From an uncultured Ruminococcus sp. (lineage in GTDB: Bacteria; Bacillota; Clostridia; Oscillospirales; Acutalibacteraceae): DNA of 64,000 nucleotides. The translations under genes were made by a program, and so were the position numbers. The notes under the pieces were generated by a model. The model searched no databases. It saw only the letters and a program-made list of their open reading frames with translations, and had not been told where the DNA came from. Location: assembly GCA_902799245.1 (NCBI GenBank), contig CADBZY010000007.1, forward strand, positions 22,367 to 86,366. The letters are read 5' to 3'. This document shows positions 23,749 to 58,273 of this stretch, piece by piece; position 1 is the first letter of the stretch, and each line of letters opens with the position of its first letter.

Positions 23749-26253
23749 ATGGAATATGAAGGTCATGAGAATCAAAAAATCATAGAGGTTGACATTAACC
23801 ACGAGATGAAGGATTCCTTTCTCGCTTACTCGATGTCGGTCATCGTGCAGAGAGCGCTGCCCGACGTGCGCGACGGCCTGAAGCCGGTGCACAGGCGTAT
23901 TCTGTACACCATGTTCGAGGACGGACTCTATCCCGAACGCGCCTACAAGAAGTGCGCCACCACGGTCGGTGCCGTGCTGGGTCGTTATCATCCTCACGGC
24001 GATGCTTCCGTGTATGACGCTTTGGTGCGTCTGGCACAGGATTTCTCCATGCGATACATGCTGGTGGACGGACACGGCAACTTCGGTTCTGTGGACGGCG
24101 ACCCGCCTGCCGCTTACCGTTATACCGAAGCCAAGATGAGCAAGATCTCCATGGAAATGCTCACCGACATAGACAAGGAAACCGTAGATTTCACCAACAA
24201 CTTCGACGACTCGCACCAGGAGCCGACGGTGCTGCCGTCACGTTATCCGAACCTGCTTGTCAACGGCTCGACCGGTATCGCCGTCGGTATGGCGACCAAT
24301 ATCGCGCCGCACAATCTGAAGGAAACGATTGACGCGGTTTGTCTGCTGCTCAAAAATCCGGACGCGACGCTCGACGAGCTGATGGAACATATTCAGGGAC
24401 CCGACTTCCCGACAGGCGGCATCATCATGGGACGCGCCGGCATCCGCGCGGCCTACGCCACCGGACGAGGCAAGATCACCGTCCGCGCCAAGGCGGAAAT
24501 AGTGGAACGTCCCAACGGACGCTACCAGATCGTTGTCACGGAGCTGCCTTACCAGGTCAACAAAGCCCGACTGATCGAGAGCATCAGCGACCTTGTCAAG
24601 GAAAAAAGGCTGGAAGGCATCAGCAATTGCGACGACCATTCCGACCGCGAGGGTATGCGGATCACCATCGATGTCAAGCGCGACGCTTCGCCGAATGTGG
24701 TGCTGAATAACCTCTTTAAGAATACACAGATGCAGATCACCTTCGGCGCGATTCACCTTGCCATTGTGGACGGCGTGCCGAGAACCCTCACATTAAAGCA
24801 GATGCTGGAATACTACATCAAGCACCAGCTCGAAGTGATTCTGCGCCGCACGATTTATGACCTTAAAAAGGCAAAGGAACGCGCTCATATATTAGAAGCG
24901 CTGAAAGTCGCCCTTGATTTTATTGATGAAGTCATCGCGATACTGCGTTCTTCCAAGAATATCCCCGAAGGCAAGCAGCGACTCATGGATCGCTTCGGAT
25001 TCGATGAGGTACAGGCGCAGGCCATCGTGCAGATGCGTCTGGCACAGCTCACCGGCATGGAAAAGGAAAAGCTGGAAGCCGAGCTGAAAGCACTGCTGGA
25101 AAAAATCGAGGACTGCAACGACATCATCGCGCGCGAGGAACGCCGCCGCGACATCATTATGGAGGAATCGCAGGAGATAGCCCGCAAATTCGGCGACGAA
25201 CGCAGAACGCAGATAGAAACCATTTCCGGCGAAATGGATATTGAAGACCTCATCAAGGAAGAAGACTGCGTGATCACCTTTACCGCGTTCGGCTATGTCA
25301 AGCGCCAGAAGCTCGACACCTATCAGACCCAGCACAGAGGCGGCCGAGGCGTCAGCGGCATGGCGCGACGGGAAGAGGATGTGCCGACCGAGATGTTTAT
25401 CACGTCCACGCACGATTACGTCATGTTCTTCTCCGACCGCGGAAGGGTCTACAGGCTCAAAGGCTACGAGATTCCGGAGGGTTCCCGTTCGTCCAAGGGC
25501 ATCAATATCGTCAATCTGCTCCCGCTGGAGGGCGACGAAAAGATCACCGAAATGATCCGTGTACAGAAGCAGTATGAGCATGAGATGTACCTCGTCATGG
25601 TGACAAAGAACGGCCTCATCAAGCGCACGGCGCTGAGCGAATTCGGCAATATCCGCAAGAAGGGACTGATTGCCCTGAGCTTGCGCGACGACGATTCCCT
25701 TGTCTGGACGAGGCTGACCAACGGCAGCAATGAACTGCTTGTCGCCACCAAGGGAGGCTATTCCATCCGCTTCAATGAAAACGACGTGCGCGCGATGGGA
25801 CGCGGCGCGGCAGGCGTTCACGCCATCCGGCTGCGCGAAGGCGACGAAGTCATCGGCATGTCCACGCTGCGCGAAGGCGGCAGAGTGCTGACCGTCAGTG
25901 AAACCGGCTACGGCAGACTGACGCCGATTTCCGACTACCGTCTGCAAAGCCGCGGCGGAATGGGAATCAAGAATTACCGCAGCGAGAACGGCAATGTTGC
26001 CGCGATTCGTGTGGTTGACAATGACGACGACGTGATCATTATCAACAGCTCCGGCGTGATTATCCGCATTGCCGTCAGCGAGATCAGAGAATGTGCGAGG
26101 CCGAGTAAGGGCGTTCGCGTGATGAAGATCGAGGACGGCGGCAAGGTTGTGGCGCTGGCGAGAGTCAAACACGAGGAAGGCGAAGAAACCGACGCGGTGG
26201 ACAATACCGTGGAGGACGAACCGGCGGAAGAAGAAGAGGCAGGTAGCAGGTAG
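23749..26253 (+). CDS. gyrA: DNA gyrase subunit A
   Basis: Active-site tyrosine region AAMRYTEA, a QRDR-like segment and beta-pinwheel repeats. Acidic tail. The stop lies inside a heptamer repeat. Confidence 0.96.
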
Positions 26254-26277
26254 AAGGTAGTAGGTTGAAGGTTGAAG
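26241..26277 (+). repeat. tandem heptamers AGGTAGC-AGGTAGA-AGGTAGT-AGGTTGA-AGGTTGA spanning the gyrA stop
   Basis: Read directly from the sequence. Confidence 0.8.
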
Positions 26278-26289
26278 CATAGCGCAGCG

Positions 26290-26570
26290 CGTAACTAGCG
26301 AGTCTTTTTCCCAGGCGAGCGTGGGGTCCAGGGCAATGTCATCAACTTAAGGGGATTATGAAGGATGTGCCTTGCACCGGGGGTGCTCCCCCAGTCAGCC
26401 ATGCCAACAAGTTGGCGGGCTGACAGCCCCCTCAGAGAGGGAGCCGATAAAATTGCCTTCCTCTTTGAGGAAGGTGGCACGAAGTGCCGGTAGGAGCGCT
26501 CCCGGCGCAGGCGAACGCAGATAAAGGCTCCTTCAACGAGAGAAGCACAAACGAGTAAAACGCATAAACC
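26290..26570. ncRNA. GC-rich, hairpin-dense non-coding region (candidate structured RNA or long 3'UTR), unknown class
   Basis: Multiple stable hairpins (GGGGTGCTCCCC; CAGCCATGCCAACAAGTTGGCGGGCTG; CCTTCCTCTTTGAGGAAGG). No credible ORF. Lies between convergent genes. Confidence 0.25.
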
Positions 26571-26574
26571 AAAA

Positions 26575-26608
26575 AGCACTGTGAAATCAAAAATCACAGT
26601 GCTTTTAT
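26575..26608. terminator. bidirectional rho-independent terminator
   Basis: AGCACTGTGA...TCACAGTGCT, flanked by an A-run and a T-run. Confidence 0.7.
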
Positions 26609-26642
26609 TATCGTTTATAGCATAAAAAGTGTTCTCTAAAAA

Positions 26643-27392
26643 TTACAGCTTGGTACCGCATTCACCGCAGAATTTCATATCCGCGTCGTTCTGGAAGCCG
26701 CATTTCGGGCATTTGCCGGTTTTCTGCTGCAAGGAAGCTCCGCACTCGCCGCAGAATTTCAGACCAGCCGCCACGCTTGCGCCGCAGTTCGGACATTTCT
26801 GCATGTCGAGCGGTGCGCCGCAGTTGTTGCAGAATTTGCCGTTTCCGGCGGGCTTGCCGCATTCGGGACAGACCGTGGTGCGGGATTCGATCTTGCCCTT
26901 CCACACCTGGGCGGTTTCGGCGGCTTCATCAATGTTGCGACGCATGGCCTGGCTGCGCGCTTTGGCTATATAACCGGCTTCTCTCGGAGCACATTCCGTG
27001 CAAAGCTCCTCGTCCTCGTTCCAGCAGTCGGCGCATACCCATTTGTTGCAGGAAGGGCATTTCAGAAACTGGGAACGCACTTCCTCCTGCGCGGCGTCAA
27101 AGGCGGCTTCGTATTCCTTGCGCCACTGGGGAGAACGCCCTTCAAATCTGCTGCCGACCGCGTCGCTGCCGCGTTCCAAGGCGTATCCAATATCACCTGC
27201 GGCTCCGCCGATCATTCGACCCACAGCCGAAGCAAGTCTGCCGAAGCTCCTTGAATTCTGCTGTTTCTTGTAGGTGGTAGAGGGAATAAAGGTGCTCTGT
27301 ACGCCGTTTCCGCAGCAGTCACAGTAAAATTCAAACTGAAATCCGGCTTCGGTGGAAAGATCATTGTAATTTCTGGTAAATGAATGCAGCAT
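26643..27392 (-). CDS. multi-zinc-ribbon protein (many CxxC pairs), hypothetical
   Basis: Eight or more CxxC pairs (CPECG, CNNCG, CPNCG, CGECG, CPKCG). ACGGAGGA ribosome-binding site. Confidence 0.6.
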   Translation of the reverse strand: MLHSFTRNYNDLSTEAGFQFEFYCDCCGNGVQSTFIPSTTYKKQQNSRSFGRLASAVGRMIGGAAGDIGYALERGSDAVGSRFEGRSPQWRKEYEAAFDAAQEEVRSQFLKCPSCNKWVCADCWNEDEELCTECAPREAGYIAKARSQAMRRNIDEAAETAQVWKGKIESRTTVCPECGKPAGNGKFCNNCGAPLDMQKCPNCGASVAAGLKFCGECGASLQQKTGKCPKCGFQNDADMKFCGECGTKL

Positions 27393-27623
27393 TATTGATG
27401 TCCTCCGTGTTTTCTATAATATATTTATTGATTCTATTGTATTAAAGAATAGATGATTTGTCAATATGATAAAATCAAAACGCGCCTGAACAAAATAATC
27501 TTTGCGTCAAATATTCAAAGAAAATTCATAAAAAATCATATAACATCTATTGACATTCATATGAACCTGTATTATAATCATATTAATTTAAGTGACAATC
27601 GATTAAACTTGAAGGTGAATCAA

Positions 27624-28199
27624 ATGACAAGTGGAAAAAAGCAAATCACTCCCGCAAAAGAAAGGCCGGAGCTTGTGGATTATGAAGCCATTCGTCCGGC
27701 ATTCGCGGTAACGGGCGGACTCATGCTTTCACAGGTAGTGGAAATGACAGGACTCGGCAGCTCCACGATTCAGAACTGGATTAAACGCGGCTGGATCATG
27801 TCTCCTACGGACAAAAAATACAGCGAACGTCAGGTGGCGCGCATTCTCATTATCAATATGCTGCGCAAATCGATGCAGCTGGAAAACATTCTCAAGCTCA
27901 TGGAATGTGTCAACGGTGATGTGGAAGATCAGTCGGATGACATCATCAAGGACGCCGACCTATACATATATATTTATAATATCGTCAAGAGAACCGAACC
28001 GCTTGATCAATTCACGCTTGACCGTCTGGATAGTGTCATTGATGAGGAAATCCGCGATTATCACGGCACCGCCGAAGGCTACACCGGTCATGTCAGCGAC
28101 GCCGCCAAGCGGCTGCACGACGCGCTGAAAATCATCCTGCTCACCTATATGAGCAGTGAGCTTCGCAAGCGCGCGGAAGCGGAATTGGAAAAATTATAA
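27624..28199 (+). CDS. MerR-like helix-turn-helix protein of the DUF1836 type, hypothetical regulator
   Basis: Helix-turn-helix LSQVVEMTGLGSSTIQNWIKRGWI. ATG at 27624 with a GAAGGTGAA ribosome-binding site; the track's upstream extension is an AT-rich leader. Confidence 0.5.
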   Translation: MTSGKKQITPAKERPELVDYEAIRPAFAVTGGLMLSQVVEMTGLGSSTIQNWIKRGWIMSPTDKKYSERQVARILIINMLRKSMQLENILKLMECVNGDVEDQSDDIIKDADLYIYIYNIVKRTEPLDQFTLDRLDSVIDEEIRDYHGTAEGYTGHVSDAAKRLHDALKIILLTYMSSELRKRAEAELEKL

Positions 28200-28219
28200 A
28201 AAAGAAAGGCAGTATCATT

Positions 28220-28477: not shown

Positions 28478-28589
28478 GAAATGAATGTATCATAAAAGAG
28501 CGTCAGCAAGGGGACAAGAGAAGAGTTTTTTAGAAGAGAGTATCAAAAAAGGGATAGACTATCAGTTTTTTGAAAGGAAATGAACGGAT

Positions 28590-28802: not shown

Positions 28803-28843
28803 TGCGGCATAACAGAAGACAATAACAGGGGGGGAAATACATA

Positions 28844-29461
28844 ATGAAAGATTGGTTTATGACAGATCCTTTGCGTTCGACGCTGCTTTGTGTGGCCGTG
28901 CCGGCTACGGTCATTATGATATTGCAGACCGTGATGATTTTTATCGGAATGGCGGGACATTCCGATGTGGATATGCCGGACGACAACGGCATTGACGGTG
29001 TATTCGGCAACGATTCGCCTGACGCTCCCGATGTGCATCTCGGCGACTCGGGACTCCGTATCTTTACGGTGCGCGGAATGGTTGCGTTTTTCGCGGTCGG
29101 CGGCTGGGCAGGGCTTTCCGCCCTCTCTCTCTGCGGAAGTACCGCGGCTGCAATCATTACGGCATTCATCGCGGGAACACTCGCGCTTCTGCTTGTGGCG
29201 TGGTTTTTCAAATGGGCGGCTTCACTGAATGAAAACGGCACGCTTCAAATGGAGAGCGCGGTCGGCAAGGTCGGCGAGGTCTACATAACGGTTCCGCCGG
29301 AAATGAACGGAACCGGCAAGGTGAATATCATCATTCAGGGCAGGCTGACCGAAGCCGAAGCCATGACCGACAGCGAACGTCCCCTGAAATACGGCGAACC
29401 CGTGGAAGTCGTCGGGATGGCAGTCGGGAACGTTCTGAAAGTCAGACCCGTATCAAAATAG
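28844..29461 (+). CDS. NfeD-family membrane protein (OB-fold C-terminus)
   Basis: Transmembrane helices plus a C-terminal OB-fold domain GKVGEVYITVPP...GKVNIIIQGRL. Confidence 0.7.
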   Translation: MKDWFMTDPLRSTLLCVAVPATVIMILQTVMIFIGMAGHSDVDMPDDNGIDGVFGNDSPDAPDVHLGDSGLRIFTVRGMVAFFAVGGWAGLSALSLCGSTAAAIITAFIAGTLALLLVAWFFKWAASLNENGTLQMESAVGKVGEVYITVPPEMNGTGKVNIIIQGRLTEAEAMTDSERPLKYGEPVEVVGMAVGNVLKVRPVSK

Positions 29462-29520
29462 CGCTCACATTCGTTCGCTTAGTGAATGGTGAATAGTGAA
29501 TAACGTCGGAAGCGCTTCGC
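29462..29520 (+). repeat. post-stop element: GCGCTCACATTCGTTCGCTT followed by the (A/G)GTGAAT x3 heptamer and a GC palindrome
   Basis: Similar (about 80% by eye) to 58221..58273 on the minus strand. Confidence 0.7.
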
Positions 29521-29555
29521 GCTTGGAATCTATTATAATGAAAGAAGAATATCCC

Positions 29556-29867: not shown

Positions 29868-29870
29868 TTT

Positions 29871-36644: not shown

Positions 36645-36801
36645 TTTTCCATTGAATTGACTGATTGATTTCAAAAATATTCCGATATGTAATTTTTATA
36701 TAATTTATTACAATTAAGTTTTTTCGCGTTACATACCCGAAAACCATCCCTGGCCTTTGCGCATTCGTGCTGCATCGGTTGGGGATTTTTTTCTTTTGGT
36801 G

Positions 36802-36822
36802 AGGTTGAAGGTTGAAGGTTCA
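36802..36822 (+). repeat. tandem heptamers AGGTTGA-AGGTTGA-AGGTTCA downstream of guaB
   Basis: Same unit as after gyrA. Confidence 0.7.
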
Positions 36823-37007
36823 AAAGAATGAGTTGAAAACTGTGTTGAAAATGTTGAAAAATACTGTTTCTTTGGGTACATTCATTGGTAAAGAATGGGA
36901 ATGAAGCGCAGAATGAACAATTTACTTTAAAATAGAATGGATTTTTACAGTAACGCTATTGACAATAAACAGTACATGATGTAAAATAATGACAGTACAA
37001 ATTAATA

Positions 37008-37110
37008 TGACCCGCAGGGGTGCCGCAAGATATTTGGCTGAGACAGCGCATTGATGCGCTGAACCCTTATACCTGATACGGATAATGCCGTCGTAGGAAG
37101 TTATTTCAAG
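37008..37110 (+). promoter_or_regulatory. TPP (THI-box) riboswitch
   Basis: GGGGUGCC, GGCUGAGA, AACCC and ACCUGAUACGGAUAAUGCCGUCGUAGGAAG match the TPP aptamer consensus. Confidence 0.88.
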
Positions 37111-37164
37111 TGTGTTTTGTATTGTGCCTTGAACCGCATCGCTCAATTGTCACTTTTCGAATCA

Positions 37165-37250: not shown

Positions 37251-37931
37251 ATGAAGGTAAACAACAAAACATTCAAGCTGGTTTTCAGCGCGTTGATGGT
37301 GGCACTCTCCGTAGTGCTGAGCTTCTTCAAGATCGAATTCCTTTACGGAGGCTCCATCACAATTTTCAGCATGGTGCCGCTGGTGCTGGTCGCACAGATG
37401 TACGGCGTTCCGTGGGGCATCCTCACCGGTGTGGTCTACGGACTGATCCAGATGGTCATGGGATTTAAGAATTTCAGCTATGTGACTGGCGTTGAGGCCT
37501 ATGCGATGGTGGCCGCGCTGGACTACATCGTCGCTTTCGGTGTCATCGGCTTTGCAGGTGTCACACGCAAGATCAAGAACCGCGCCGTTGCCGCTTCTCT
37601 CGGCGCTGTGATTGCCTGTATTCTTCGCTTTTTGTGCCACTTTGCTTCCGGCGTTGTCGTGTGGGCAAAGGGAATGGAAATCTGGGACGAGGCGCCCTCT
37701 TTCATCAGCGAGCGTTTGCTTGAAAAAGACATGGTGCCGTACACCTATTCGCTTATGTACAACGGCGGCTATATGTTCCCCGAACTGATTCTCACCACAT
37801 TGGGCAGCGCTATCCTCTGCACGATCATCTTTGAGGCATTCAAGATCGATGTCAACGCAACCTCGACCAAGAAGCTCAAGGCAACTGCCGACGCAAACCT
37901 TTCCGATGAGAGCGCAAAGACAGAGGAATAA
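37251..37931 (+). CDS. thiT: thiamine ECF-transporter S component ThiT/YuaJ-like
   Basis: Multi-transmembrane protein (FKIEFLYGGSITIFSMVPL) directly downstream of the TPP riboswitch; AGGAGG ribosome-binding site. Confidence 0.65.
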   Translation: MKVNNKTFKLVFSALMVALSVVLSFFKIEFLYGGSITIFSMVPLVLVAQMYGVPWGILTGVVYGLIQMVMGFKNFSYVTGVEAYAMVAALDYIVAFGVIGFAGVTRKIKNRAVAASLGAVIACILRFLCHFASGVVVWAKGMEIWDEAPSFISERLLEKDMVPYTYSLMYNGGYMFPELILTTLGSAILCTIIFEAFKIDVNATSTKKLKATADANLSDESAKTEE

Positions 37932-45993: not shown

Positions 45994-47763
45994 ATGAGAA
46001 GACACCAATTGAGCGGATTGGAACATGTGCATATGATGAGACATGTTCCGAGAAGCTATGATATGACCCGCACTCATATAATGCACAAGAGCGTTAATAA
46101 GCACGTCGATGTTGTGCTGAGATGTTCCCCGAAGAACTGGAAGAAGAAGAAAGTGACTGTCAATGTGGTCAGGGGCGAAAAGAAAAACGACGCCGCCCGC
46201 ATCGCAGCCAACGCCAAAAAGGGCTATGTGGCCGTACGCAAGACGGTCAACGATCAGTTTGAAGCCGATCGCAAGATAGCCGCAGCCGCTTTTGAGACAA
46301 AGTACGGCACACGTTCCGCGGGTTCTGATGCTCTGATACACGATATGAAGAGCCAGATTTCCACAATGGCCCAAAAGAGTGCCGATTATATCGACAGCCA
46401 GCTGACAGAGAAGCCGGAATATCCCTACGGATCTCCCATGAATCCTACGGTGGAATCCAAGCCCGTCGTGGAGAAAGAGCCCCTTATCAGCGCGGAAACC
46501 GAGGATATTCTGAAAAAGGGCGGCTACAAGCTTCCCAAATCCAAGCCGGAGGGAAGCCCGTATGCTGCGGACTACCTCATGCACGCTTCCAATGAGGAAT
46601 TCCATAACCTGATGGATTCTCTGGAAAAGTCGCTCGACGAAGCCTGCAAAAAGTATGCGGCGCAGCCCGATGAACCGGCGGCAAAGACCGAGACAGAAAC
46701 AGAGCCGACGCACGAAACCGAGAGCGGCAAGACCGAATTTGGCTATGAAGGGTATAACGGATTTGGCGGTTACGGCGGCGGATATAATATGCCAGGCGAC
46801 ATCAGCCTCAGTGTGACAAAGAAGCAGGAAATTAAGGCTGAGGAAAATGAAGTAAAAGAAGCAAAATTAGCCATAGAAGAAGAGGAAGAACAGGAGTTCA
46901 AGCCCGCTCTGACGTTTACGGACGGCGGCGAGCATTATATTCCTGACAGCGGACGGCATTATCTCCGCGAAGACGATCTTTTTGACAGAGAGCTTAACCG
47001 TCCTGGTGACACCTATGTGCCGCCTGCTAATTTCTTTGAGGATGAGGAAATCGCTCCCTCGGGTGACAGTGATGACAGCGGCGAAGCATATGTGCCGCTG
47101 CCGGACGCAATACCCGCGCATCCGTCCATGCCGAAACCCCAGAATATCTTCTACACTGAGGAGGACGACCAGCCGATCGGCCAGCAGGAAGGCTATCCGA
47201 GAGAGGACTACGTTCAGCAACAGGTATTTTTCACGACACAGCCGGACGATGAATCATCTTCCAATCTTTACAATCCTCCGCAGGAGGAAGAGGAATTTGC
47301 CGAGCCGACGCTGTATCACGATATGACCAATGCGCACGGTCATGTCGGAGAAGAAAGCGACTACGAACCCCCGATGGTATTCCCCGATAACGACAACGAC
47401 GGTGATGCTCCTGAAGTACCGGCACCGGATGATGACGAAGATCTTGCGGCTCCTATGATCTTCCCGGACGATGATGAAGAACTTCCGCCTCCTATGATCT
47501 TCCCGGACGACGATGAGGGCTACAGTCCCGCTCCCGTTTCGCCCGACCGGAATGAATATTATGATGACGGTAACGGCGATCAGGGTGTGGTGAATCGTTC
47601 CGGACAGACGCTGTTCAGCCGCACCGGCGACCAGATCAAAAAGGTAATCGGTATCATCCCCGGTTCCGGCGACAGTAATATCAGCTCAAAGAACAATTCT
47701 TCACAGATTCGCAATCACAATGTAGAGATTACCTATACCGATCGGGACGGTAATAATATATAA
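45994..47763 (+). CDS. acidic low-complexity protein with PxM(I/V)FPDDDE repeats, hypothetical
   Basis: AAGGAGGGG ribosome-binding site; Asp/Glu/Pro-rich with three near-identical repeats. Confidence 0.6.
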   Translation: MRRHQLSGLEHVHMMRHVPRSYDMTRTHIMHKSVNKHVDVVLRCSPKNWKKKKVTVNVVRGEKKNDAARIAANAKKGYVAVRKTVNDQFEADRKIAAAAFETKYGTRSAGSDALIHDMKSQISTMAQKSADYIDSQLTEKPEYPYGSPMNPTVESKPVVEKEPLISAETEDILKKGGYKLPKSKPEGSPYAADYLMHASNEEFHNLMDSLEKSLDEACKKYAAQPDEPAAKTETETEPTHETESGKTEFGYEGYNGFGGYGGGYNMPGDISLSVTKKQEIKAEENEVKEAKLAIEEEEEQEFKPALTFTDGGEHYIPDSGRHYLREDDLFDRELNRPGDTYVPPANFFEDEEIAPSGDSDDSGEAYVPLPDAIPAHPSMPKPQNIFYTEEDDQPIGQQEGYPREDYVQQQVFFTTQPDDESSSNLYNPPQEEEEFAEPTLYHDMTNAHGHVGEESDYEPPMVFPDNDNDGDAPEVPAPDDDEDLAAPMIFPDDDEELPPPMIFPDDDEGYSPAPVSPDRNEYYDDGNGDQGVVNRSGQTLFSRTGDQIKKVIGIIPGSGDSNISSKNNSSQIRNHNVEITYTDRDGNNI

Positions 47764-49281: not shown

Positions 49282-49815
49282 ATGTATTGTTCACATTGCG
49301 GCGCTCAGAATGCCGATGATGATCTTTTCTGCGGCAGCTGCGGCCAGAGACTGTCTGGCGAAGGGACAGGCAATGCCGTAGAGGACGAAGAGCTTCCTCC
49401 CGTGCTGGACAGCCGGGCAGAATTCGCCATGCTGCGTCCTCCTGAATCGGAAATGCGTCCGCTGACCAAATTGGCATATGATATACATGATTCTGAGCAG
49501 GCAAAGGCAATCAGCGCTGTGCTGAGTGTGGTTTTTGTAGGGCTTTGTCTGGGAGTTATTGCCAATCTTCTTGCTATATTTGAGAAGATGAATAACCTCA
49601 CCTATTCACTCAAAACATCCAGCGGCACCAAGCTGGCCGATGAGATCTACAGTCAGCTCAGAGGTGACAGCACAATGGATCTTATTTGGTTGTGCGTACT
49701 GTTTGCATCGCTTGTGCTGCTGTATATCGTGGTCGGTAAAATCAAGCTCAGGCTGAAAAAGATTTACCGCAAAGAAAAGAAATTTAAGGCAAAGGGTCTT
49801 TTTATCGACATCTGA
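49282..49815 (+). CDS. zinc-ribbon membrane protein
   Basis: MYCSHCG..CGSCG; transmembrane helices. Confidence 0.6.
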   Translation: MYCSHCGAQNADDDLFCGSCGQRLSGEGTGNAVEDEELPPVLDSRAEFAMLRPPESEMRPLTKLAYDIHDSEQAKAISAVLSVVFVGLCLGVIANLLAIFEKMNNLTYSLKTSSGTKLADEIYSQLRGDSTMDLIWLCVLFASLVLLYIVVGKIKLRLKKIYRKEKKFKAKGLFIDI

Positions 49816-49817
49816 TT

Positions 49818-49835
49818 CTTACGCTTATGCTTACG
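49818..49835 (+). repeat. tandem hexamers CTTACG-CTTATG-CTTACG 2 nt after the stop
   Basis: Read directly from the sequence. Confidence 0.6.
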
Positions 49836-51316: not shown

Positions 51317-51337
51317 AGCCAAAAGCCAAAAGCCAAA
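51317..51337 (+). repeat. tandem heptamers AGCCAAA x3 6 nt after the stop
   Basis: Read directly from the sequence. Confidence 0.75.
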
Positions 51338-51348
51338 AGAATAAAAGA

Positions 51349-51399
51349 AACCGCCCATTGACGCGACGGAAAATTCCGGTCAATGGGCGGTATTTTTTT
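51349..51399. terminator. bidirectional terminator
   Basis: ACCGCCCATTGAC...GTCAATGGGCGGT followed by T7. Confidence 0.75.
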
Positions 51400-51423: not shown

Positions 51424-52302
51424 TTACGGCTGACCAGCTGCTTCTGTACTCTCTGTGGTGGTGCGCTTGTTGATCGAAACAGCACCGCCGATCTGAGGCG
51501 CCTTGGTAGTCGTCGTTGTGGGAGCCGCTGTCGTGGTATGCTTTGTGGTTGTCTGTGTTTGGGCAGTTGTCGTCGTTGGCATAGTAGTGGTGGTAGTCGC
51601 TTTTGTCGTTGCTTTCGTGGTGGAAACCGTCGTGCTCGCAGTGGTAGTCACGGCCGTGGTTGTCGTGGTGGAAGTGACAGATGTCTGCGTCTTCTTTTCC
51701 GTGGTTGTCGTCTTTTTCACCGTGGTAGTGGTGGCCTTTACCGTGGTCGTCGTTTTCCTTCTTGTGGTGGTGGTCGTTTTGACGGAATACGGCTTCGCGG
51801 AGGTGACGGCTGCCGTCTTTTTCGTAGTCCTGCGGGTAGTGGTCGTAGTGGTATGCTTCACTGTCGTGGTGGTGGCGGATTCCTTCAGGTTCGCGTCGGG
51901 AAGTCGGGTGGTGACAGTCGTCATGTAAAGGAACTGGTTGTCAATGTCTTCCTCGGGAACGTTACTGGTTTCCGAAGTGTAGTCTTCATCGTCATCATCG
52001 ATGAATTCCACGACTGTAACACCGTTCTCGATAACGGAAGGATTCCTGGTGGTGGTAGTAACAGCGGCAACCGTCTCTTGATCCTGTGTGGGAACGTCGC
52101 TCTGAGAGACCGACTCATTCGGCGTTTCATAAATGGAGGTGTCGCTGTATGTAACAACATAGTGAATTTTAGGAACAGGTTGAATATAGCCGTCCGTAGA
52201 AGCGCTGCTGCTGACAATGCTGCCGCACACGAACACCGTGGCAAACATGGCCGTGAGCATCGACATGACGATCATGAATTTCTGTGCAACAGACTTGTCC
52301 AT
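51424..52302 (-). CDS. Thr-rich (mucin-like) membrane-anchored protein
   Basis: N-terminal transmembrane helix followed by long poly-Thr/Val low-complexity sequence. AAGGAGGG ribosome-binding site. Confidence 0.55.
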   Translation of the reverse strand: MDKSVAQKFMIVMSMLTAMFATVFVCGSIVSSSASTDGYIQPVPKIHYVVTYSDTSIYETPNESVSQSDVPTQDQETVAAVTTTTRNPSVIENGVTVVEFIDDDDEDYTSETSNVPEEDIDNQFLYMTTVTTRLPDANLKESATTTTVKHTTTTTTRRTTKKTAAVTSAKPYSVKTTTTTRRKTTTTVKATTTTVKKTTTTEKKTQTSVTSTTTTTAVTTTASTTVSTTKATTKATTTTTMPTTTTAQTQTTTKHTTTAAPTTTTTKAPQIGGAVSINKRTTTESTEAAGQP

Positions 52303-52491: not shown

Positions 52492-53610
52492 TTAACCCAC
52501 AGGCACACCGTCAAGATCGTCACTGCTTTCATCCGCAGCCAATGACGAAGAAACAGGCGGAGCGGCTGTTGTCGTGGTGGTGGTGGTATTCTTGGTTGTT
52601 GTGGTTGTGATGGTGGCGGTAGTGTCAGTTGTCGTCGTTGTGGTTGTCGTGGTTTTGGACGAGGAAGTGGTTGACTGCTCGCTGAAATAGGGATTGCCCG
52701 CAGACCATTCATCAGAGGGATCCCAGCCGCTGTATTTGGCACCGGTCTTTCTCTTGGGAACGCCGGCGCCCTTCGGTCCGGATTCCCATACGACGTGCAC
52801 CTGCGTGCCGATGGGGCAGTTGTCAAAAATCCACTTGCAGTCTCTGACACACATTCTGATGCAGCCGTGCGAAACCGCTTTGCCTAAATTGTTGTAGGAA
52901 GCGTTGTAAAGTGTGTCAGGTTTTTGCTTGTCGTAAGGAACCGAGTGGAAAAGATAGCTGGAACCGATGCTGCTGCTGTACTGACCATAGCACGGCCCCA
53001 TCAGCAGGCGCCATCTGTATTTTGCCCTGATTTTGTACATGCCCTTGCGAGTCGGAGTGGAGCTTTTTCCGGTCGATACGGTGAATGCCTTGATAATCAC
53101 GTTGTAAGCGCCGGAATTATCCTTGCCGTATACGACGGCAGACTGGCTGCCGGTGTAGACGACTATATAATATTTGGATTTGTAGTCGGGATCCTTTATG
53201 TATTCCACGTTTTTGGATTCATCGTCGGGAACACTTGCTTCCGTCGTCTTTGTTGCGTCCGCCTTTGACTCTGCTTTTGCATTGTTGGAGGAAGTTGTTC
53301 TGGTGGTTGCAGCGGTGGATGAAGCACTGGAAGTCGCCGTGCTGGAAGTGGCCGTGGTATTGTTATTCCTGCTGTTATTATTATCATTGTTGTTGTTGTT
53401 GACAGTCTTGTTGCCCAATACATTTTTTGTATTGATTTTGTTTATTTTCAGGCCGTTGTCCGACTTGTCAGCGGAAATCTTTGCCGACACTTCCTCCTCG
53501 ATGGTGGAAAGTTGTTTCCCGAAGCTGTCAAATCCGGTGAAAAACACGGTGCATGAGATGAGCATACATGAGATAAGAATGGTTATCAGTCTGGAATAAT
53601 GACTTTTCAT
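52492..53610 (-). CDS. L,D-transpeptidase (YkuD domain) with a poly-Thr linker
   Basis: Catalytic motif SHGCIRM; AGGAGG ribosome-binding site. Confidence 0.75.
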   Translation of the reverse strand: MKSHYSRLITILISCMLISCTVFFTGFDSFGKQLSTIEEEVSAKISADKSDNGLKINKINTKNVLGNKTVNNNNNDNNNSRNNNTTATSSTATSSASSTAATTRTTSSNNAKAESKADATKTTEASVPDDESKNVEYIKDPDYKSKYYIVVYTGSQSAVVYGKDNSGAYNVIIKAFTVSTGKSSTPTRKGMYKIRAKYRWRLLMGPCYGQYSSSIGSSYLFHSVPYDKQKPDTLYNASYNNLGKAVSHGCIRMCVRDCKWIFDNCPIGTQVHVVWESGPKGAGVPKRKTGAKYSGWDPSDEWSAGNPYFSEQSTTSSSKTTTTTTTTTDTTATITTTTTKNTTTTTTTAAPPVSSSLAADESSDDLDGVPVG

Positions 53611-53873
53611 TGCGAAAACCTCCTGTTCCTTTGGTTAACATGGAAAAAATATATGATAACTTTTTATACATATATTATAATAATTCGTTTTTCGTGTCAA
53701 TAGGGAATCTTCATTTGTAATATTTATGATGGAATTGAAACAAAAACCGCGGCATGATTGTTAATTTTATGTCAATATTTGGATGCGCGTATCCAAGAAA
53801 TCCCCGAAAACGACGTGCTTTCGGGGGTGCGAAGCGATTTTTCAAAAAAAATAAAAAAAAATTAAAAAAACTC

Positions 53874-53902
53874 TTGACATTTCAAAAACAGTGTGGTAAT
53901 AT
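53874..53902 (+). promoter_or_regulatory. promoter of the 5S rRNA gene with an upstream A-rich UP-like element
   Basis: TTGACA, 17 bp, TGGTAATAT. Confidence 0.55.
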
Positions 53903-53943
53903 ATTGAAGTCGTCACGGAGAGCTGCGGCGAAGCAAAAAAATA

Positions 53944-54059
<116 letters not shown>

Positions 54060-54064
54060 ATCAA

Positions 54065-54100
54065 GCCAATCTGTCCAATAGGACGGTTGGCTTTTTTTGT
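54065..54100 (+). terminator. terminator after the 5S rRNA gene
   Basis: AGCCAA...TTGGCT followed by T7. Confidence 0.65.
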
Positions 54101-54146
54101 TTCTTATCGGTTTTTTTTCAAAAATGTTTTAACATACGAATATGCA

Positions 54147-54196
54147 AAACCTGCCGCGCCCTGATCTTGCGACCAGACGCGGCAGGTTATTTTTTC
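54147..54196. terminator. bidirectional terminator (serves the minus-strand GNAT gene)
   Basis: ACCTGCCGCG...CGCGGCAGGT with a flanking A-run and T-run. Confidence 0.65.
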
Positions 54197-54208
54197 AAAA
54201 TATCATTC

Positions 54209-54946
54209 TCAGTACACAAATCCGCCTGTCGTCAGGAAACCGAATTTCGCGTAGAAATCGTGCAATGACGGCATACACATCAGATATACATCTCTGTCGG
54301 CGCATCTGTCCAGCAGGGCATTGACAACCTTGCCGGCGTAGCCCTTGCCGCGCTTGTCCGGCACACAGGCACAGATGGTCAGCAGTGCGGTGCCGGGAGA
54401 GATATGAACCGCTCCGCAGGCAGCGGGCATTCCGTCGGCGCGGACGATCGCGGAAAGAACGGTTTTGGCCTTTTTGCGGTAGATCATGTCGCTGTAGAAG
54501 TCGTCAAAGCGCGGCACTTCAAAGCCGGTGCCGGCACACTCCTCCATCACGGCGTAAACGTCGGATATTTCCGGATTAATCTCCGCGTCGGAGGATGACA
54601 CGACGTTTTTTCTCTTGGCCAGACGCATAACAAGGCCGTTGGCGGTTTCCCCTTCGCGTGCAGGGCGAAGCGCTCCGATGTAGCCCATATTGGCCTGAAT
54701 AAAGCAGTCCAGCTCCTCTTCGTCATATTTTCCCTTGGCGCATACCGTCATAGCCGTGTCAAGCCTTGAAATGACCGCGGTGATGGAACCGTCGGCGCTG
54801 TCGCCTTCGTGCTGCGTCCAGAACTGCGCAAAAGGCTTGTCTGTGCCGTAAGCCAGCATGGCCGCCAGTATGCGGCAGCCGAAGGGATCGCCCTGACAAT
54901 ATTCCTTGGCAGCTTCAAAGCTGTCCTGATTGATCATCTTAATCAT
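54209..54946 (-). CDS. GNAT-family N-acetyltransferase
   Basis: C-terminal acetyl-CoA fold (GKGYAGKVVNALL); AAGGTGG ribosome-binding site. Confidence 0.65.
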   Translation of the reverse strand: MIKMINQDSFEAAKEYCQGDPFGCRILAAMLAYGTDKPFAQFWTQHEGDSADGSITAVISRLDTAMTVCAKGKYDEEELDCFIQANMGYIGALRPAREGETANGLVMRLAKRKNVVSSSDAEINPEISDVYAVMEECAGTGFEVPRFDDFYSDMIYRKKAKTVLSAIVRADGMPAACGAVHISPGTALLTICACVPDKRGKGYAGKVVNALLDRCADRDVYLMCMPSLHDFYAKFGFLTTGGFVY

Positions 54947-55016
54947 AGGATCTGTCCACCTTTTATTGATAAATTTTCTGTCCTAATATTACGATTTGTT
55001 GATTCTTATATATGTT

Positions 55017-55787
55017 TTACAAAACATACCGATCTATAAAATCAGAAATGGAATCCGTATCGTTGTTTCCGATCACAATATTCGCGTGAAGCTTGACATC
55101 ATCGACAGCGTTATCCATGGCAACTCCCACGCCGCAGATCTCGAGCATTTCCACATCCACGAAATCATCGCCGAACGCGATCATTTCCTCCGCCGGAATA
55201 CCGGTGCTGCTCACCACATGCTTCAGCGCGTCACCCTTGGAGACGTTGGCTTTGGAAAACTTGAACCAGTCGCAGTCGGAGAATGCCAGCCATGAGCAGT
55301 TGTCCACCAAACCGGACGTTTTCTCGGCAAATGCCGTATCAGTGCCCTCAATGCATATCTTGTAGGAACGGCGGCGGAAATCCCCGTAAGCCGTGTAGAC
55401 CATTCCCGGCATGTTGTAAAACGGAATATGACGGTTGGAATAAGTGACGTCCTCGCAGTCCACGGTGATGCCGCGCTGCTCCGCAACGCCTGCGCCGACA
55501 AGGATCGATGTTTCCTCCGCGGTAAATCCGCATTGGTAAATCACCGTTCCGCGGAGCCGCACCAGTGCGCCGCTGTTGGAAATCAACAGATCGGGCTGAA
55601 TGGCGTCCGCAAACGGCTGGCAGGTCGGCTCACTTCGCGCGGTCGCCACGCCGATGAGGATGCCCTTTTTGCGGCATTCGGCAATCGCTTTCATATTGCG
55701 CTGCGAAATCTGCTTCTTGCTGTCGAGCAGTGTCCCGTCGAGATCAAAGAGCAGCAGACGCGGCTTGATTTTCAGTCTGAAATCCAT
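55017..55787 (-). CDS. Cof-type HAD-IIB hydrolase
   Basis: LLLFDLDGTLL motif. ATG at 55787, 11 nt after the upstream stop; the track's longer start is a TTG. Confidence 0.75.
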   Translation of the reverse strand: MDFRLKIKPRLLLFDLDGTLLDSKKQISQRNMKAIAECRKKGILIGVATARSEPTCQPFADAIQPDLLISNSGALVRLRGTVIYQCGFTAEETSILVGAGVAEQRGITVDCEDVTYSNRHIPFYNMPGMVYTAYGDFRRRSYKICIEGTDTAFAEKTSGLVDNCSWLAFSDCDWFKFSKANVSKGDALKHVVSSTGIPAEEMIAFGDDFVDVEMLEICGVGVAMDNAVDDVKLHANIVIGNNDTDSISDFIDRYVL

Positions 55788-55798
55788 AAATAGAATAA

Positions 55799-56827
55799 TT
55801 ACTTGTTCATAGCGGCCTTCTGAGCGAGTGCGCAAACCAGCTCACAGACGGCATTCAGATCGTTTTCGGAAATAACGCCGCAGGGGGAGTGGAGGTATCT
55901 GCAAGGCAGCGAAATCGCGGCTGTCCTGACGCCCGATCGGCTGTTGTGGATGGATCCGGCGTCGTTTCCGCCGGTGACGCCTTTTTTGAACTGCCACTTG
56001 ATGCCGCGGTCGCCCGCGATTCTCTGGCACATCTTCAACAGTCCTCTGTCGTAGATGGTGGTTCTGTCCATGAAGGAAACGACCGCGCCTTCGCCCACTT
56101 TGCAGACCTTGCTGCATTCGTCAACGCCCGGGATGTCGGCTGCCGTGGTGGATTCCACAACGATGGCCATATCCGGCGCAAGGCTGAATGCAGCGCATTT
56201 GGCGCCTCGCAGTCCGACTTCCTCCATCGTGGAGAATACAAAATACAGATCACATTCCAGGTCGCGTTTGAGTATCTCCATCAGAATAGCGCATCCCGCG
56301 CGGTCGTCAAGCGCCTTGCCTTTCAGCAGACCGTCGCCGAATTCACCGAAAGAGGTGTCAAATACCGCATAGTCACCCGGTAAAACTTTCTGCAGGGCTT
56401 CCAGCTTGTTAAGCGCTCCGATGTCGATGTACATATCTTTTGCTTCCGGCGCCTTTGCGACCTCGTCATCCTCCAGCAGATGAATCGGCTTGGCGCCGAT
56501 GACGCCGGGCAGCTTCTCCTCACCTACGAGAACCGGCGTGCCGCAGAGCACGCGCGCGTCAATGCCGCCCACTGTGGCGAATTTCAGCAGTCCGTTCTCC
56601 GCAATATCGGTGATGATCAGTCCCACCTCGTCCATGTGGGCGCATATCATCAGCTTGTTTTCGGGTGTGTTCTTTCCCTTTTTGAATGCGATGACCGAAC
56701 CGGTGCTGTTCACGTTCACCTCGTCGCAGTAGGGTTTTATTTCTTTTATAATAAACTCTCTTACCTCGTCCTCCACGCCGGAAACGCCGTGAAGCTCCGA
56801 GAGCTTTGCAAGTGTGTCACGAAGCAT
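55799..56827 (-). CDS. M42-family aminopeptidase (FrvX/YsdC-like)
   Basis: Full-length M42 similarity; AAGGGAG ribosome-binding site. Confidence 0.8.
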   Translation of the reverse strand: MLRDTLAKLSELHGVSGVEDEVREFIIKEIKPYCDEVNVNSTGSVIAFKKGKNTPENKLMICAHMDEVGLIITDIAENGLLKFATVGGIDARVLCGTPVLVGEEKLPGVIGAKPIHLLEDDEVAKAPEAKDMYIDIGALNKLEALQKVLPGDYAVFDTSFGEFGDGLLKGKALDDRAGCAILMEILKRDLECDLYFVFSTMEEVGLRGAKCAAFSLAPDMAIVVESTTAADIPGVDECSKVCKVGEGAVVSFMDRTTIYDRGLLKMCQRIAGDRGIKWQFKKGVTGGNDAGSIHNSRSGVRTAAISLPCRYLHSPCGVISENDLNAVCELVCALAQKAAMNK

Positions 56828-57099
56828 ATTTTTTCTCCCTTCTTGTAATGCAGTTGGCGGATTGGTAATCGTGGAAATTGGTTGAGATAGGTGTGGTGGC
56901 GCCTTTTATGAAGCGAGGTTGTTCTTCGGTCGGGACAGGGGAAAATTGCCGGTATTCGCCTGTCCCTTTCGCGTGTTCGGGTGCGTCTTGCTCGCTCAGC
57001 CAAAGGCTTCGCTCGTGAAGGCTTTGCCCTCACGCAGGGCTCCAGACCCCTGCACACCGCGCTCGCTAATTATGTGCTATGCGTACTTTTTCTTCATCT

Positions 57100-57128
57100 G
57101 CTACCTTCTACCTTCTACCTTCTACCTT
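57100..57128 (-). repeat. tandem heptamers AGGTAGA x3 plus AGGTAGC immediately after the stop of the upstream M42 gene
   Basis: Plus-strand sequence CTACCTTCTACCTTCTACCTTCTACCTT. Confidence 0.8.
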
Positions 57129-58157
57129 TTATTTTATTCCGCCGCTTCTTATGTACGCGGCGAGCAGCTGTGCGGTTTTCTCCACGTCATCACAGTCCAC
57201 TGTTTCCACGGGAGTATGCATATTTCTTATCGCAACCGACAAAAGCCCGCAGGGAATGCCGCCGGCTGTTACGGCGATGTCATCGGCATTGGTGCCGGTT
57301 CTGCCGCCGCCGACGTCATACTGCCACTTGATGCCCTGTTCATCCGCGATGGACGTCAGCTTTTTGGTGATCTGCCGGCTGAGCACCGGATAAAAGCCGA
57401 TCATCGGGCCTTCGCCGAGCTTGCCGCACATTTCGTCAGGGCATCCCGGATACTGTCCGAATCCCGTATCCACGACAATGGCCTGTGTGGGAGCGACAGT
57501 GAATGCTGCGCAGCCCGCCGCGAGATGACCGACTTCTTCACGTGTGGACAGCAGCGCGGTCACATGGTAATCGAGTCTGGCACATTTGGGTTCGAGAAGC
57601 TCCACTGTGCGGATAATGACAGCGGCGCCCGCGCGGTTGTCCAGTGCCTTGCCGGAAATTCTGCTGCCCAGCAGGGAAGCGGGTCTGCTTCTGAAAGCGA
57701 TACGGGTTCCGATGGGCACAAGCTCTCTGGCCTTGTCGGCGGAATAACCTATATCAACCGCCATATCCCTGAAATCGGGAACTTTGGAAACATCTTCCCC
57801 GCGTGTCAGGTGAGGAGGACGGCAGCAGATCACGCCGTTGATTTTGTTTTTGCTCATGACGCAGACTTCGCTGCCCATCAGAACGCGACGGTCGACGCCG
57901 CCGCAGCGTGCCACATGGAGAAATCCGTCATTGTCAATATCGGTGACAACAAGTCCGATCTCGTCGATATGCGCATCAATGAGTATATGATTGGGGGAAT
58001 TCAGATCACCCAGCTCCGCCATGACGTTGCCCATCGAATCGCGTACGACCGAGGTGTAATCCGAAAGCAGTTCCATTGCCAGCCGGGCGGCGGAACCTTC
58101 CGCGCCCGAGGGGCCGTTCGCGTTGGATAGCCCCAGTATGATGTCTTTTACAGCCAT
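57129..58157 (-). CDS. M42-family aminopeptidase (second tandem copy)
   Basis: ATG at 58157 (MAVKDII) with a GAGGAG ribosome-binding site. Confidence 0.8.
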   Translation of the reverse strand: MAVKDIILGLSNANGPSGAEGSAARLAMELLSDYTSVVRDSMGNVMAELGDLNSPNHILIDAHIDEIGLVVTDIDNDGFLHVARCGGVDRRVLMGSEVCVMSKNKINGVICCRPPHLTRGEDVSKVPDFRDMAVDIGYSADKARELVPIGTRIAFRSRPASLLGSRISGKALDNRAGAAVIIRTVELLEPKCARLDYHVTALLSTREEVGHLAAGCAAFTVAPTQAIVVDTGFGQYPGCPDEMCGKLGEGPMIGFYPVLSRQITKKLTSIADEQGIKWQYDVGGGRTGTNADDIAVTAGGIPCGLLSVAIRNMHTPVETVDCDDVEKTAQLLAAYIRSGGIK

Positions 58158-58220
58158 ATATCTTCTCCTCAAAATTTATATTTTATTCATTTCAGCGCTG
58201 CGGGCGCTCCGAAATTATTA

Positions 58221-58273
58221 TCTATTATTTATTCTCTATTCACTATTCACTTAGCGAGCGAACGCGAGCGCCT
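58221..58273 (-). repeat. post-stop element (minus orientation): GCGCTCGCGTTCGCTCGCTA followed by AGTGAAT-like heptamers
   Basis: Homologous to 29462..29520. Confidence 0.7.

Follow-up and report, generated by a model that had tools for sequence, protein, structure and literature searches.

We analyzed a stretch of 64,000 nucleotides (nt) from an uncultured Ruminococcus sp. of the family Acutalibacteraceae (contig CADBZY010000007.1, positions 22,367 to 86,366; hereafter, the window, to which all coordinates refer unless another locus is named). GyrA homologues agree with the placement of the organism in this family. The window covers the origin region dnaA-dnaN-recF-gyrB-gyrA and carries a set of short tandem repeats, mostly with 7-nt units, located just 3' of stop codons. 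These arrays show a strong excess of period 7, differ between strains by whole units, are present or absent at the same sites in related genomes, and share a modular architecture. The explanation that we favor, with a probability of roughly 0.7, is that they are hypervariable heptanucleotide repeats made by slippage in a zone that tolerates insertions, located past the stop codon and before the terminator, where they mostly form the variable module of dispersed elements.

All arrays are located where the first-pass annotation had placed them, as confirmed by Tandem Repeats Finder and direct reading of the sequence. The gyrA array (26241-26277, plus strand) has 5.3 copies, AGGTAGC/AGGTAGA/AGGTAGT/AGGTTGA/AGGTTGA; the gyrA stop codon TAG (26251-26253) is within its second unit, and the last residues of GyrA (..AGSR*) are encoded by the array. 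An array of three AGGTAGA units plus AGGTAGC (57100-57128, minus strand) directly follows the stop codon TAA (57129-57131) of the first of two M42 peptidase genes. The stand-alone array AGGTTGA/AGGTTGA/AGGTTCA (36802-36823, plus strand) lies 157 nt 3' of the guaB stop codon, past the guaB terminator (36744-36792) and 5' of the promoter of a thiamine pyrophosphate (TPP) riboswitch; it shares a 16-nt stretch, without mismatches, with the last part of the gyrA array. The AGTGAAT unit is found in two arrays. One of them, AGTGAAT/GGTGAAT/AGTGAAT (29480-29503, plus strand; 3.3 copies, also readable as TAGTGAA TGGTGAA TAGTGAA TAA), starts 18 nt past the stop codon of a gene labeled “NfeD” from a Pfam match below the threshold, for which an exact-protein look-up returned identical DNA only. 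The other, AGTGAAT/AGTGAAT/AGAGAAT/AAATAAT/AGATAAT (58214-58252, minus strand), with its last three units decayed, starts 22 nt past a stop codon. The sixth heptamer array, AGCCAAA in 3.3 copies (51317-51339, plus strand), begins 6 nt past the stop codon of a substrate-binding protein gene and is bounded on its other side by the A-tract belonging to a strong bidirectional terminator (51348-51399; fold z = -4.5). The hexamer array CTTACG/CTTATG/CTTACG (49818-49835, plus strand) starts 2 nt past the stop codon of the zinc-ribbon gene 49282-49815, and the weak instance 40 nt past the gyrB stop codon was confirmed as AACAGGA in 2.4 copies (22579-22595, plus strand).

With one array finder used throughout, arrays of at least 3 copies in the window numbered six for period 7 and zero for periods 5, 8, 9, 11, and 12. 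In 200 dinucleotide-preserving shuffles, the mean number of period-7 arrays was 0.075 and the maximum was 1, so that the excess is approximately 80-fold. Every array is either intergenic or straddles a stop codon, and none is found between divergent genes. The distances from the stop codon to the array are 0, 0, 157, 18, 22, and 6 nt for the heptamers, 2 nt for the hexamer, and 40 nt for the gyrB array. Compared with uniform placement inside each array's own intergenic region (Fisher combined), the nearness to the upstream stop codon has p = 8.8e-5 for 8 loci and p = 9.0e-4 for the 6 heptamer arrays, which bears out the proposed association with upstream stops. Because the shuffle test and the placement test both favor it, the basic observation stands.

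Some details of the initial description, however, have to be revised. What had been counted as seven separate loci includes two pairs with common flanks, the members of which are copies of each other, which leaves about three independent heptamer origins. Whether most units start with AG and have A as their last base is a matter of phase, the choice of which is arbitrary. Direct-repeat orientation, likewise, has meaning solely between arrays that share a unit. Thus, the claim that the arrays always lie on the coding strand holds for arrays of the same unit (3 of 3 for AGGTWGA and 2 of 2 for AGTGAAT) but is weaker than claimed, given that these loci are not independent.

The M42 protein of the window has identical counterparts in many samples (roughly 85 sample blocks). 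The behavior of the arrays in closely related strains was assessed in ten loci that encode this protein and have 10-kb flanks 98.5 to 99.5% identical to the window. Among these 10 strains, the AGGTAGA array past the first M42 gene is found in 4, 5, 6, or 7 copies and in five alleles (AAAC, AAAAC, ACAAAC, ACAATAC, and AAAAAAC, each letter standing for the final base of one unit), against a constant length of the other 275 nt of the same spacer, which have 2 variable columns. Most strains have five units in the AGTGAAT-type array at 58214; L222 has four and L223 has six, while in L215 and L224 the array is represented by a version that is 21 nt shorter and retains the hairpin described below. 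Depending on the strain, the AGCCAAA array consists of three units, two units and AGAAAAA, or just two units. No variation was seen in the short or imperfect arrays, namely, the guaB array (10 strains), the 29480 array (L225 and L226), and the hexamer (7 strains). The arrays, therefore, behave as simple sequence repeats: they change by whole units, and the longer and purer ones change more. The single uniform family envisaged at first is thus better described as a set of simple sequence repeats of variable copy number. The gyrA array could be compared with a single other contig, where it is identical; L225 has another neighbor gene there. Specifically, LytTR and DUF3021 genes (L225, 1-1460), rather than gyrA, adjoin the double-zinc-ribbon gene, which indicates that the 3' neighborhood of gyrA has been rearranged between strains.

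In more distant relatives, arrays come and go together with longer pieces of DNA. In L123, L126, and L129, whose GyrA is ~89-90% identical to that of the window, and in L130 (96%), a terminator stands directly past the gyrA stop codon, with no array, and in L131 the same site carries a related element. Because the L130 terminator has its counterpart in the window at 26571-26606, some 320 to 345 nt, comprising the array and an element that follows it, have been inserted in the acidic tail of gyrA. This C-terminal tail varies in length and sequence in each close relative (810 to 853 amino acids); in the window (26211-26253), it ends with ..EEEEAGSR*. Around the first M42 gene, the distance from the gene for a 178-amino-acid protein is 117 nt in the window versus 32 nt in L132, which lacks the whole small module (see below), and the two M42 genes are 300 nt apart in the window versus 27 to 69 nt in L132 and L134. 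The M42 protein itself ends with SGGIK* in the window versus SGGICQ* or CGGIGQ* in the relatives; at both gyrA and the first M42 gene, the used stop codon is supplied by the repeat or an A-rich head. Conversely, the site past the second M42 gene is occupied by a long element in L134 to L136 but not in the window or L132. Taken over the window, L130, L131, L132, and L134, presence and absence are seen at the gyrA site, the sites of both M42 genes, and the site of the 178-amino-acid protein gene. The substrate-binding protein site is occupied by a plain A-tract in the relatives, and the L130 orthologue of the 29480 array is more degenerate. Overall, ~112 kb of nonredundant congener sequence yielded 0 to 1 arrays of at least 3 copies, where the density of the window (6 arrays in 64 kb) would predict ~10 (Poisson p = 3e-4), in agreement with the suggested lineage specificity of the arrays.

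Four of the six heptamer arrays lie within two related modular elements, referred to here as the small module and the long element; only the guaB and AGCCAAA arrays have no module flanks. The small module (70 to 90 nt) consists of the stop codon, AGCGCTCGCGTTCGCTCGCT, the array, a short GC hairpin, and GGAAT, and it follows two unrelated genes in the window, 28844-29461 and 58274-58810. Its motif AGCGCTC(A/G)C(A/G)TTCG(T/C)TCGCT is the reverse complement of a motif that we refer to as M (TAGCGAGCGAAYGCGAGCG), and the array is followed by (CG)TCGG, a 5- to 6-bp GC hairpin, and then GGAAT in the 29460 copy or GAAAT in the 58274 copy. In the former copy, the reverse complement of motif M (AGCGCTCACATTCGTTCGCT; 29460-29479, plus strand) overlaps the stop codon TAG (29459-29461) and is matched by the small-module hidden Markov model with E = 3.3e-16; the module is completed by CGTCGG, the hairpin AAGCGC-TTC-GCGCTT, and GGAAT (29504-29529, plus strand). 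In the latter, an exact match to this motif (GGCGCTCGCGTTCGCTCGCT; 58253-58272, minus strand; E = 2e-22) begins no more than 3 nt from the stop codon TAA (58274-58276) of the gene 58274-58810, and the end of the module is represented by TTCGG and the hairpin AGCGC(C)-loop-GCGCT (58189-58213, minus strand).

The long element starts in the same manner, with a stop codon and either an array or an A-rich tract, and continues with a short GC palindrome, TAGCGAGCGAATGCGAGCG, 2 to 4 GC-rich hairpins, and then GAGCGAGCAAGACGC..GGCGAATAC. After gyrA and the first M42 gene, this element is headed by the AGGTAGA-type arrays. At gyrA, its body (26278-26565, plus strand; nhmmer E = 2.4e-7) contains the palindrome H (26281-26291) and a split motif M (TAGCGAG..CGAGCG, 26296-26321), followed by GC-rich hairpins. 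The insertion separates the gyrA tail from the ancestral gyrA terminator, an intrinsic terminator hairpin with a T run (26571-26606, plus strand) orthologous to the one directly past the gyrA stop codon in L130. The second body (56928-57099, minus strand; E = 1.4e-10) includes an A-rich linker, the corresponding elements H' and M' (57057-57069), GC hairpins, and GAGCGAGCAAGACGC..GGCGAATAC. The hairpins of the long elements, 2 to 4 past the stop codon, have 7- to 8-bp stems, and some of the stem changes are compensatory; the consensus fold of the long-element core has weak covariation.

Both modules are found in other genomes as well. There are at least 8 copies of the small module, with variable arrays, and ~12 of the ~14 independent copies of the two elements start 0 to 3 nt past a stop codon, with all of them in gene orientation. 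In L205, four genes in succession each end in such a module. The gene beside one of the L146 copies is dapA, and its relatives with 88% identity are labeled Acutalibacteraceae. The hairpin of the small module is seen elsewhere in compensatory variants, AAGCCC..GGGCTT in L146 and AAGGGGC..GCCCTT in L205. A 19-mer of motif M used to scan metagenomes returned 78 matches, of which ~6 gut-type loci were informative; many of the others lie in GC-rich coding DNA and are probably due to chance. Exact copies of the same 19-mer, TAGCGAGCGAAYGCGAGCG, are also part of other families of repeats in environmental contigs that are unrelated (L137 to L214; e.g., L155, 165-302, and L150, 3449-3586). In activated sludge, it is part of 119-nt tandem units punctuated by GTCCTAG, and 17 contigs from the sample Ga0213870 contain it in the arrangement ..GGAGCGAAGCGACC-M-AGAGGGGGAGGCTCC... 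Some of these environmental matches, too, probably reflect chance in GC-rich DNA.

The unit of the array is not conserved among homologous modules. Thus, L146 and L205 small modules carry ACTGAAA, ACTTAAG, or AGATAAT units, and the relatives' long elements have an A-rich, approximately 7-periodic tract or another repeat in the array position: GAAAAAG AAAAAAG in L131, AAAAGTA AAAAGAA AAAAACA in L134 to L136, five copies of AAAGAAAATAA plus GAAAAAA in L211, and two copies of GGAAAAA in L161. In sum, AGGTAGA is replaced by GAAAAAA, AAAGAAAATAA, or GGAAAAA in the long element, and AGTGAAT by ACTGAAA or AGATAAT in the small one. Because homologous modules of Acutalibacteraceae bear such different units, the proposal that the arrays are binding sites for a sequence-specific protein is argued against.

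The question of whether the arrays belong to a known class was addressed by comparing the window and the loci of 7 relatives with Rfam 15 at gathering thresholds, which gave no matches at the arrays or elements; the only Rfam matches in the window are a 5S rRNA and the TPP riboswitch. Neither of the two long elements had an Rfam match at E values up to 5. The arrays are not CRISPR, as had been stated, since their units are 7 nt long and contiguous, with no spacers, whereas CRISPR requires repeats of ~23 to 50 nt and unique spacers. Nor are they terminators: they are predicted to be unpaired, with true terminators adjoining them at 36744-36792, 51348-51399, and 26571-26606, and the module folds no better than its shuffles (z = -0.2 to -0.5). 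The denial of a relationship to repetitive extragenic palindromes (REP) is correct to the extent that no named element was matched, but 4 of the 6 arrays are inside elements that resemble the REP, BOX, and MITE families, which touches on the refuting condition set in the first-pass annotation, a match to a known mobile or REP element. The arrays have the features of heptanucleotide simple sequence repeats, with tandem 7-nt units, an excess of period 7, unit-step polymorphism, intergenic positions near the ends of open reading frames (ORFs), and lack of conservation. The arrays probably lie in 3' untranslated regions (3'UTRs) or intercistronic RNA, because each follows a stop codon and precedes a terminator or another gene; this position supports their description as a 3'UTR element, which may or may not have a function.

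The favored explanation accounts for these observations as follows. Slipped-strand mispairing or unequal exchange would most likely add and remove complete 7-nt units, starting from a seed of purine- and A-rich DNA; the AGAAAAA/AGCCAAA allele series and the A-tracts in relatives point to A-tracts as such seeds. Survival would be limited to a permissive zone, which begins with the last codons that a gene can spare and ends with the terminator hairpin or the ribosome-binding site (RBS) that comes next; this would place the elements at the stop codon. Where an insertion cuts into the last part of an ORF, as it did in gyrA and in the first M42 gene, the purine-rich orientation, with stops in every frame, would be the tolerated one, because an insertion with this strand in the sense direction is cut short at once. 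The units and flanks shared by the AGGTAGA pair and by the AGTGAAT pair would then reflect copying of the element rather than independent selection of a motif, and the repeats would need no sequence-specific function.

Several points weigh against this explanation. Slippage alone leaves the preference for 7 nt unexplained, and the data cover ~64 kb of the genome plus the strain loci. The order of the small module, its stop-codon position, and its hairpin with compensatory stems are kept across several Acutalibacteraceae, so that it looks more constrained than junk. A stop codon just precedes the motif in 8 of 8 small modules, where approximately one-third would be expected if the frame were random, and the long copies are co-oriented in 7 of 7 cases (p = 0.016), which suggests a constraint at the RNA level. 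Finally, neither a transposase nor a clear terminal inverted repeat was found for the element copies, and a comparison of filled and empty sites revealed no target-site duplication; their mobility is therefore suggested solely by presence and absence. The ends of the elements share AGCGCT-type palindromes that could serve as short imperfect terminal inverted repeats. It is conceivable, though unlikely, that the small and long modules form an undescribed Acutalibacteraceae family of stop-anchored, gene-oriented elements, which could represent either a mobile element that targets stop codons or a posttermination or 3'-end RNA device. In the latter version, the spacing might be tuned by heptamer slippage, via a HutP-like or other binding protein with 7-nt periodicity.

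A related, and similarly unlikely, alternative is that the whole structure is a functional RNA module of the 3'UTR or intercistronic region, which could be a landing pad for an RNA-binding protein or nuclease, a REP-like stabilizer of mRNA ends, or a sensor of ribosomes at the stop codon, with the array as a tunable unstructured spacer. The recurrence of the same order, of the position 0 to 3 nt from the stop, and of gene orientation past unrelated genes in several Acutalibacteraceae favors this idea, as does the preservation of the stem by compensation (AAGCGC/GCGCTT, AAGCCC/GGGCTT, and AAGGGGC/GCCCTT). At the 58274 locus, moreover, the stop-side palindrome (AGCGCT / GGCGCTC) is predicted to be capable of pairing with the 5' arm of the hairpin, thereby enclosing the array. 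However, the lack of better-than-shuffled folding and of any Rfam match does not fit well with a structured RNA, and the module is absent at the orthologous sites of congeners with no visible replacement. The same applies to the free variation of its copy number among strains and to the different units of homologous modules.

One specific version of this RNA-level function comes from the AGGTAGA and AGTGAAT arrays, which read UAG-N4-UAG-N4-UAG. This is the spacing recognized by Bacillus HutP, whose site in the hut mRNA of Bacillus subtilis consists of (UAG-N4)x3, that is, UAG triplets at the same 7-nt spacing. Unlike the HutP site, the window arrays have no paired second site or terminator overlap, their copy number is unconstrained, and there are homologous modules with no UAG at all, including those in L146 and L205. 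A HutP-like gene was not found among the candidate ORFs of the window. HutP-type binding was therefore rejected, on the grounds of the missing HutP domain among those ORFs and of the UAG-less modules.

The proposal that the arrays are all-frame stop traps, selected to end the translation by read-through or frameshifted ribosomes, appears quite improbable. Its factual basis is sound: since 7 is not a multiple of 3 and leaves a remainder of 1, no frame stays open for more than 21 nt in repeats of AGGTAGA, AGGTTGA, or AGTGAAT. In addition, 3 of the 5 heptamer unit types in the window have a sense-strand stop codon and none has one on the antisense strand, and the element supplies the used stop codon of gyrA and the first M42 gene. 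On the other hand, AGCCAAA and AACAGGA, as well as GAAAAAA, GGAAAAA, and the AAAGAAAATAA-flanking tracts of the homologues, are often stop-free, and the congeners do without arrays. Furthermore, in the cross-phylum sample described below, among the matches listed, unselected units bear stops on the sense strand in 22 and on the antisense strand in 25 of 56 cases, and the AGGTWGA arrays are sense in 34 cases and antisense in 32. With stop-free units in the family and no sense/antisense asymmetry elsewhere, the stop content is better read as making an insertion at the end of an ORF tolerable than as the selected function.

It is more doubtful still that the arrays are contingency loci that tune a downstream gene (the second or the first M42 gene) by phase variation, in the manner of the 7-bp repeats at hmw in Haemophilus. 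Copy number is indeed polymorphic at the two arrays that flank the first M42 gene, both of which are upstream of a co-oriented gene, and at the substrate-binding protein array. However, the next start codon is ~60 to 270 nt away, no promoter-like sites were called on the gene strand of those spacers, and no promoter or RBS overlaps the arrays. The neighbors are housekeeping or metabolic genes rather than genes for surface proteins, and the same conclusion has been reached for the Xanthomonas and Nostoc heptamers (PMC4692102). Lastly, chance low-complexity sequence or an assembly artifact, an idea to which the short units and the mere ~3 imperfect copies of some arrays lend themselves, deserves practically no credence, being ruled out by the ~80-fold excess restricted to period 7 and by the recurrence of the same arrays when many samples were assembled independently, their alleles stepping by whole units.

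The reading of the arrays as slippage-made simple sequence repeats agrees with their distribution in other bacteria. An exact scan for three copies of AGGTWGA in one genome per species returned at least 120 stretches, compared with ~2 expected by chance (an estimate); the sources of the matches listed include filamentous cyanobacteria, Chloroflexota, Bacteroidota, Acidobacteriota, and Planctomycetota. Among the matches listed, AGGTWGA arrays, and one array of TTCACTA (equivalent to AGTGAAT), are found in Moorena, Okeania, Microcoleus, and others. The same listed loci contain ~120 further period-7 arrays with other units, many of which adjoin the selected ones and are thus not independent, versus 9, 25, 19, and 6 arrays with periods of 5, 6, 8, and 9, respectively. 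Genomes that make heptamer arrays, then, make many kinds of them. Sharing of a unit by many phyla was considered as a sign of a shared system and rejected: there are only ~1,200 classes of heptamers by rotation and strand and, by our estimate, hundreds of arrays per array-rich genome, so that recurrence of a unit needs no such system. A general strand rule for AGGTWGA was also rejected. Among the matches listed, crude ORFs gave 27 sense versus 13 antisense arrays and masking of the arrays gave 34 versus 32, a result that is soft because the gene calls are ORF based; 34 of the listed arrays had been swallowed by stop-free antisense ORFs. The antisense strand of these arrays (TCWACCT) is stop-free in all frames, and in 75 of the 120 listed loci (L003 to L122), the array lies within an open stretch that is at least 90 codons long. 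This strand is a likely source of spurious or overextended gene calls and should be treated with caution by annotators.

Stop-adjacent heptamers have been described before and do not constitute a new class. Simple sequence repeats with the heptamer units GGGAATC in Xanthomonas and GGGGA(C/T)T in Nostoc PCC 7120 abut stop codons on the coding strand (PMC4692102; Rehm et al. 2015). Most of them are transcribed, sister species differ in them, and no function has been identified for them; polymerase slippage was proposed as their source (PMC4692102). According to the work of Mrazek et al. 2007, as cited in PMC4692102, heptamer repeats are overrepresented in many bacteria; the same paper cites the idea that the 7-nt preference reflects the polymerase footprint. 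Like the Xanthomonas and Nostoc repeats, those in the window are tandem 7-nt units (typically ~4) that are intergenic, rare between divergent genes, and variable among close relatives. In contrast to them, the window units are not G-rich, which makes a G-quadruplex impossible, the host is a gut member of the Firmicutes, and most arrays are embedded in modules with conserved flanks. Arrays of another heptamer, TAACTGA, are found in Beggiatoaceae, Cyanobacteria, and Bacteroidetes, and those of “Maribeggiatoa” are located just upstream of start codons, where a translational role was proposed (PMC4679880; MacGregor 2015).

Both the STRR repeats of cyanobacteria and the TAACTGA repeats resemble those in the window in forming many intergenic arrays of 2 to several heptamers, with a patchy phylogeny and several unit types per genome, and ACTGAAA and AGTGAAT are one or two changes away from a rotated TAACTGA. 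The STRR heptanucleotide repeats were reportedly described in Calothrix and Anabaena by Mazel and colleagues in 1990. Compared with the TAACTGA arrays, those in the window abut the upstream stop codon, are present in far fewer copies, and come from another phylum.

The modules have analogues of their own. The enterobacterial REP/BIME sequences are GC-rich imperfect palindromes that form mosaics with short linkers in 3'UTRs, past the stop codon and ahead of the terminator or the following gene, and are present or absent between relatives. The long elements of the window are likewise mosaics of GC-rich imperfect palindromes past a stop codon; however, their sequence is different, and the REP mosaics have no leading heptamer array. 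The pneumococcal BOX element, boxA-(boxB)n-boxC, is enriched downstream of genes, is transcribed, and can alter ORF ends, and its boxB number varies between strains, more so with more copies (PMC3049150; Croucher et al. 2011). The small module shares with BOX the conserved ends around a variable tandem module at many loci, which is an analogy of architecture only: boxB is ~45 nt long rather than 7, and BOX has ISSpn2-like terminal inverted repeats, whereas no such partner is known for the modules, and no anchoring at stop codons. No sequence similarity to BOX was seen, although no search aimed at it was made.

Several other features were noted in the window and in its relatives. The long spacer past gyrB contains inverted DnaA-box-like repeats TGTGGAAAA (22686-22712 and 22777-22822), which could represent another cluster of DnaA boxes in the origin region; a similar cluster is found past gyrB in L123 (~8250-8330). 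In the dnaA-dnaN spacers of congeners, there are two inverted GC-rich triple-hairpin elements of ~100 nt, CAATGGGAATCCAAGGGGGCAGGCCC... (L123, 1673-2200; L126, 1808-2230; L129, 2261-2760), of which the first starts 10 to 25 nt past the dnaA stop codon; another copy is located past gyrB in L123. Just past the guaB array, GTTGAAAA is repeated three times with irregular spacing (36826-36862), overlapping weak -35-like hexamers. The TPP riboswitch (37006-37116, plus strand), with a consensus promoter at 36959-36987, precedes a gene for a Thia_YuaJ-type thiamine transporter (37251-37931). A lone 5S rRNA gene (53944-54060, plus strand) has no 16S or 23S rRNA gene nearby; the syntenic relative L134 also has a 5S rRNA gene (14212-14328, minus strand). 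Repeats within genes include an in-frame 39-nt tandem repeat (47425-47516; 2.4 copies, 88% match) in the ORF 45994-47763 and, at 52568-52658 and 51688-51757, GTG/GTT-rich repeats with periods of 9, 15, and 33 nt in the YkuD-domain gene 52492-53610 (minus strand) and a 21-nt repeat in an unannotated gene adjoining it.

What is new here is the host, a gut member of the Acutalibacteraceae, and the location of most arrays within stop-anchored modules, as heptamers at stop codons are already known elsewhere; it is the stop-codon-anchored module family itself that appears most worth following. The findings extend the puzzle of 7-nt, stop-adjacent repeats to a gut member of the Firmicutes with many near-identical sequenced strains, which makes slippage rates and effects on expression directly measurable. 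The arrays also provide ready variable-number tandem repeat markers for typing strains of this uncultured species. For the genome itself, they illustrate how small dispersed elements rewrite the C termini of essential proteins (GyrA and an M42 peptidase) and shift terminators ~300 nt away from the genes.

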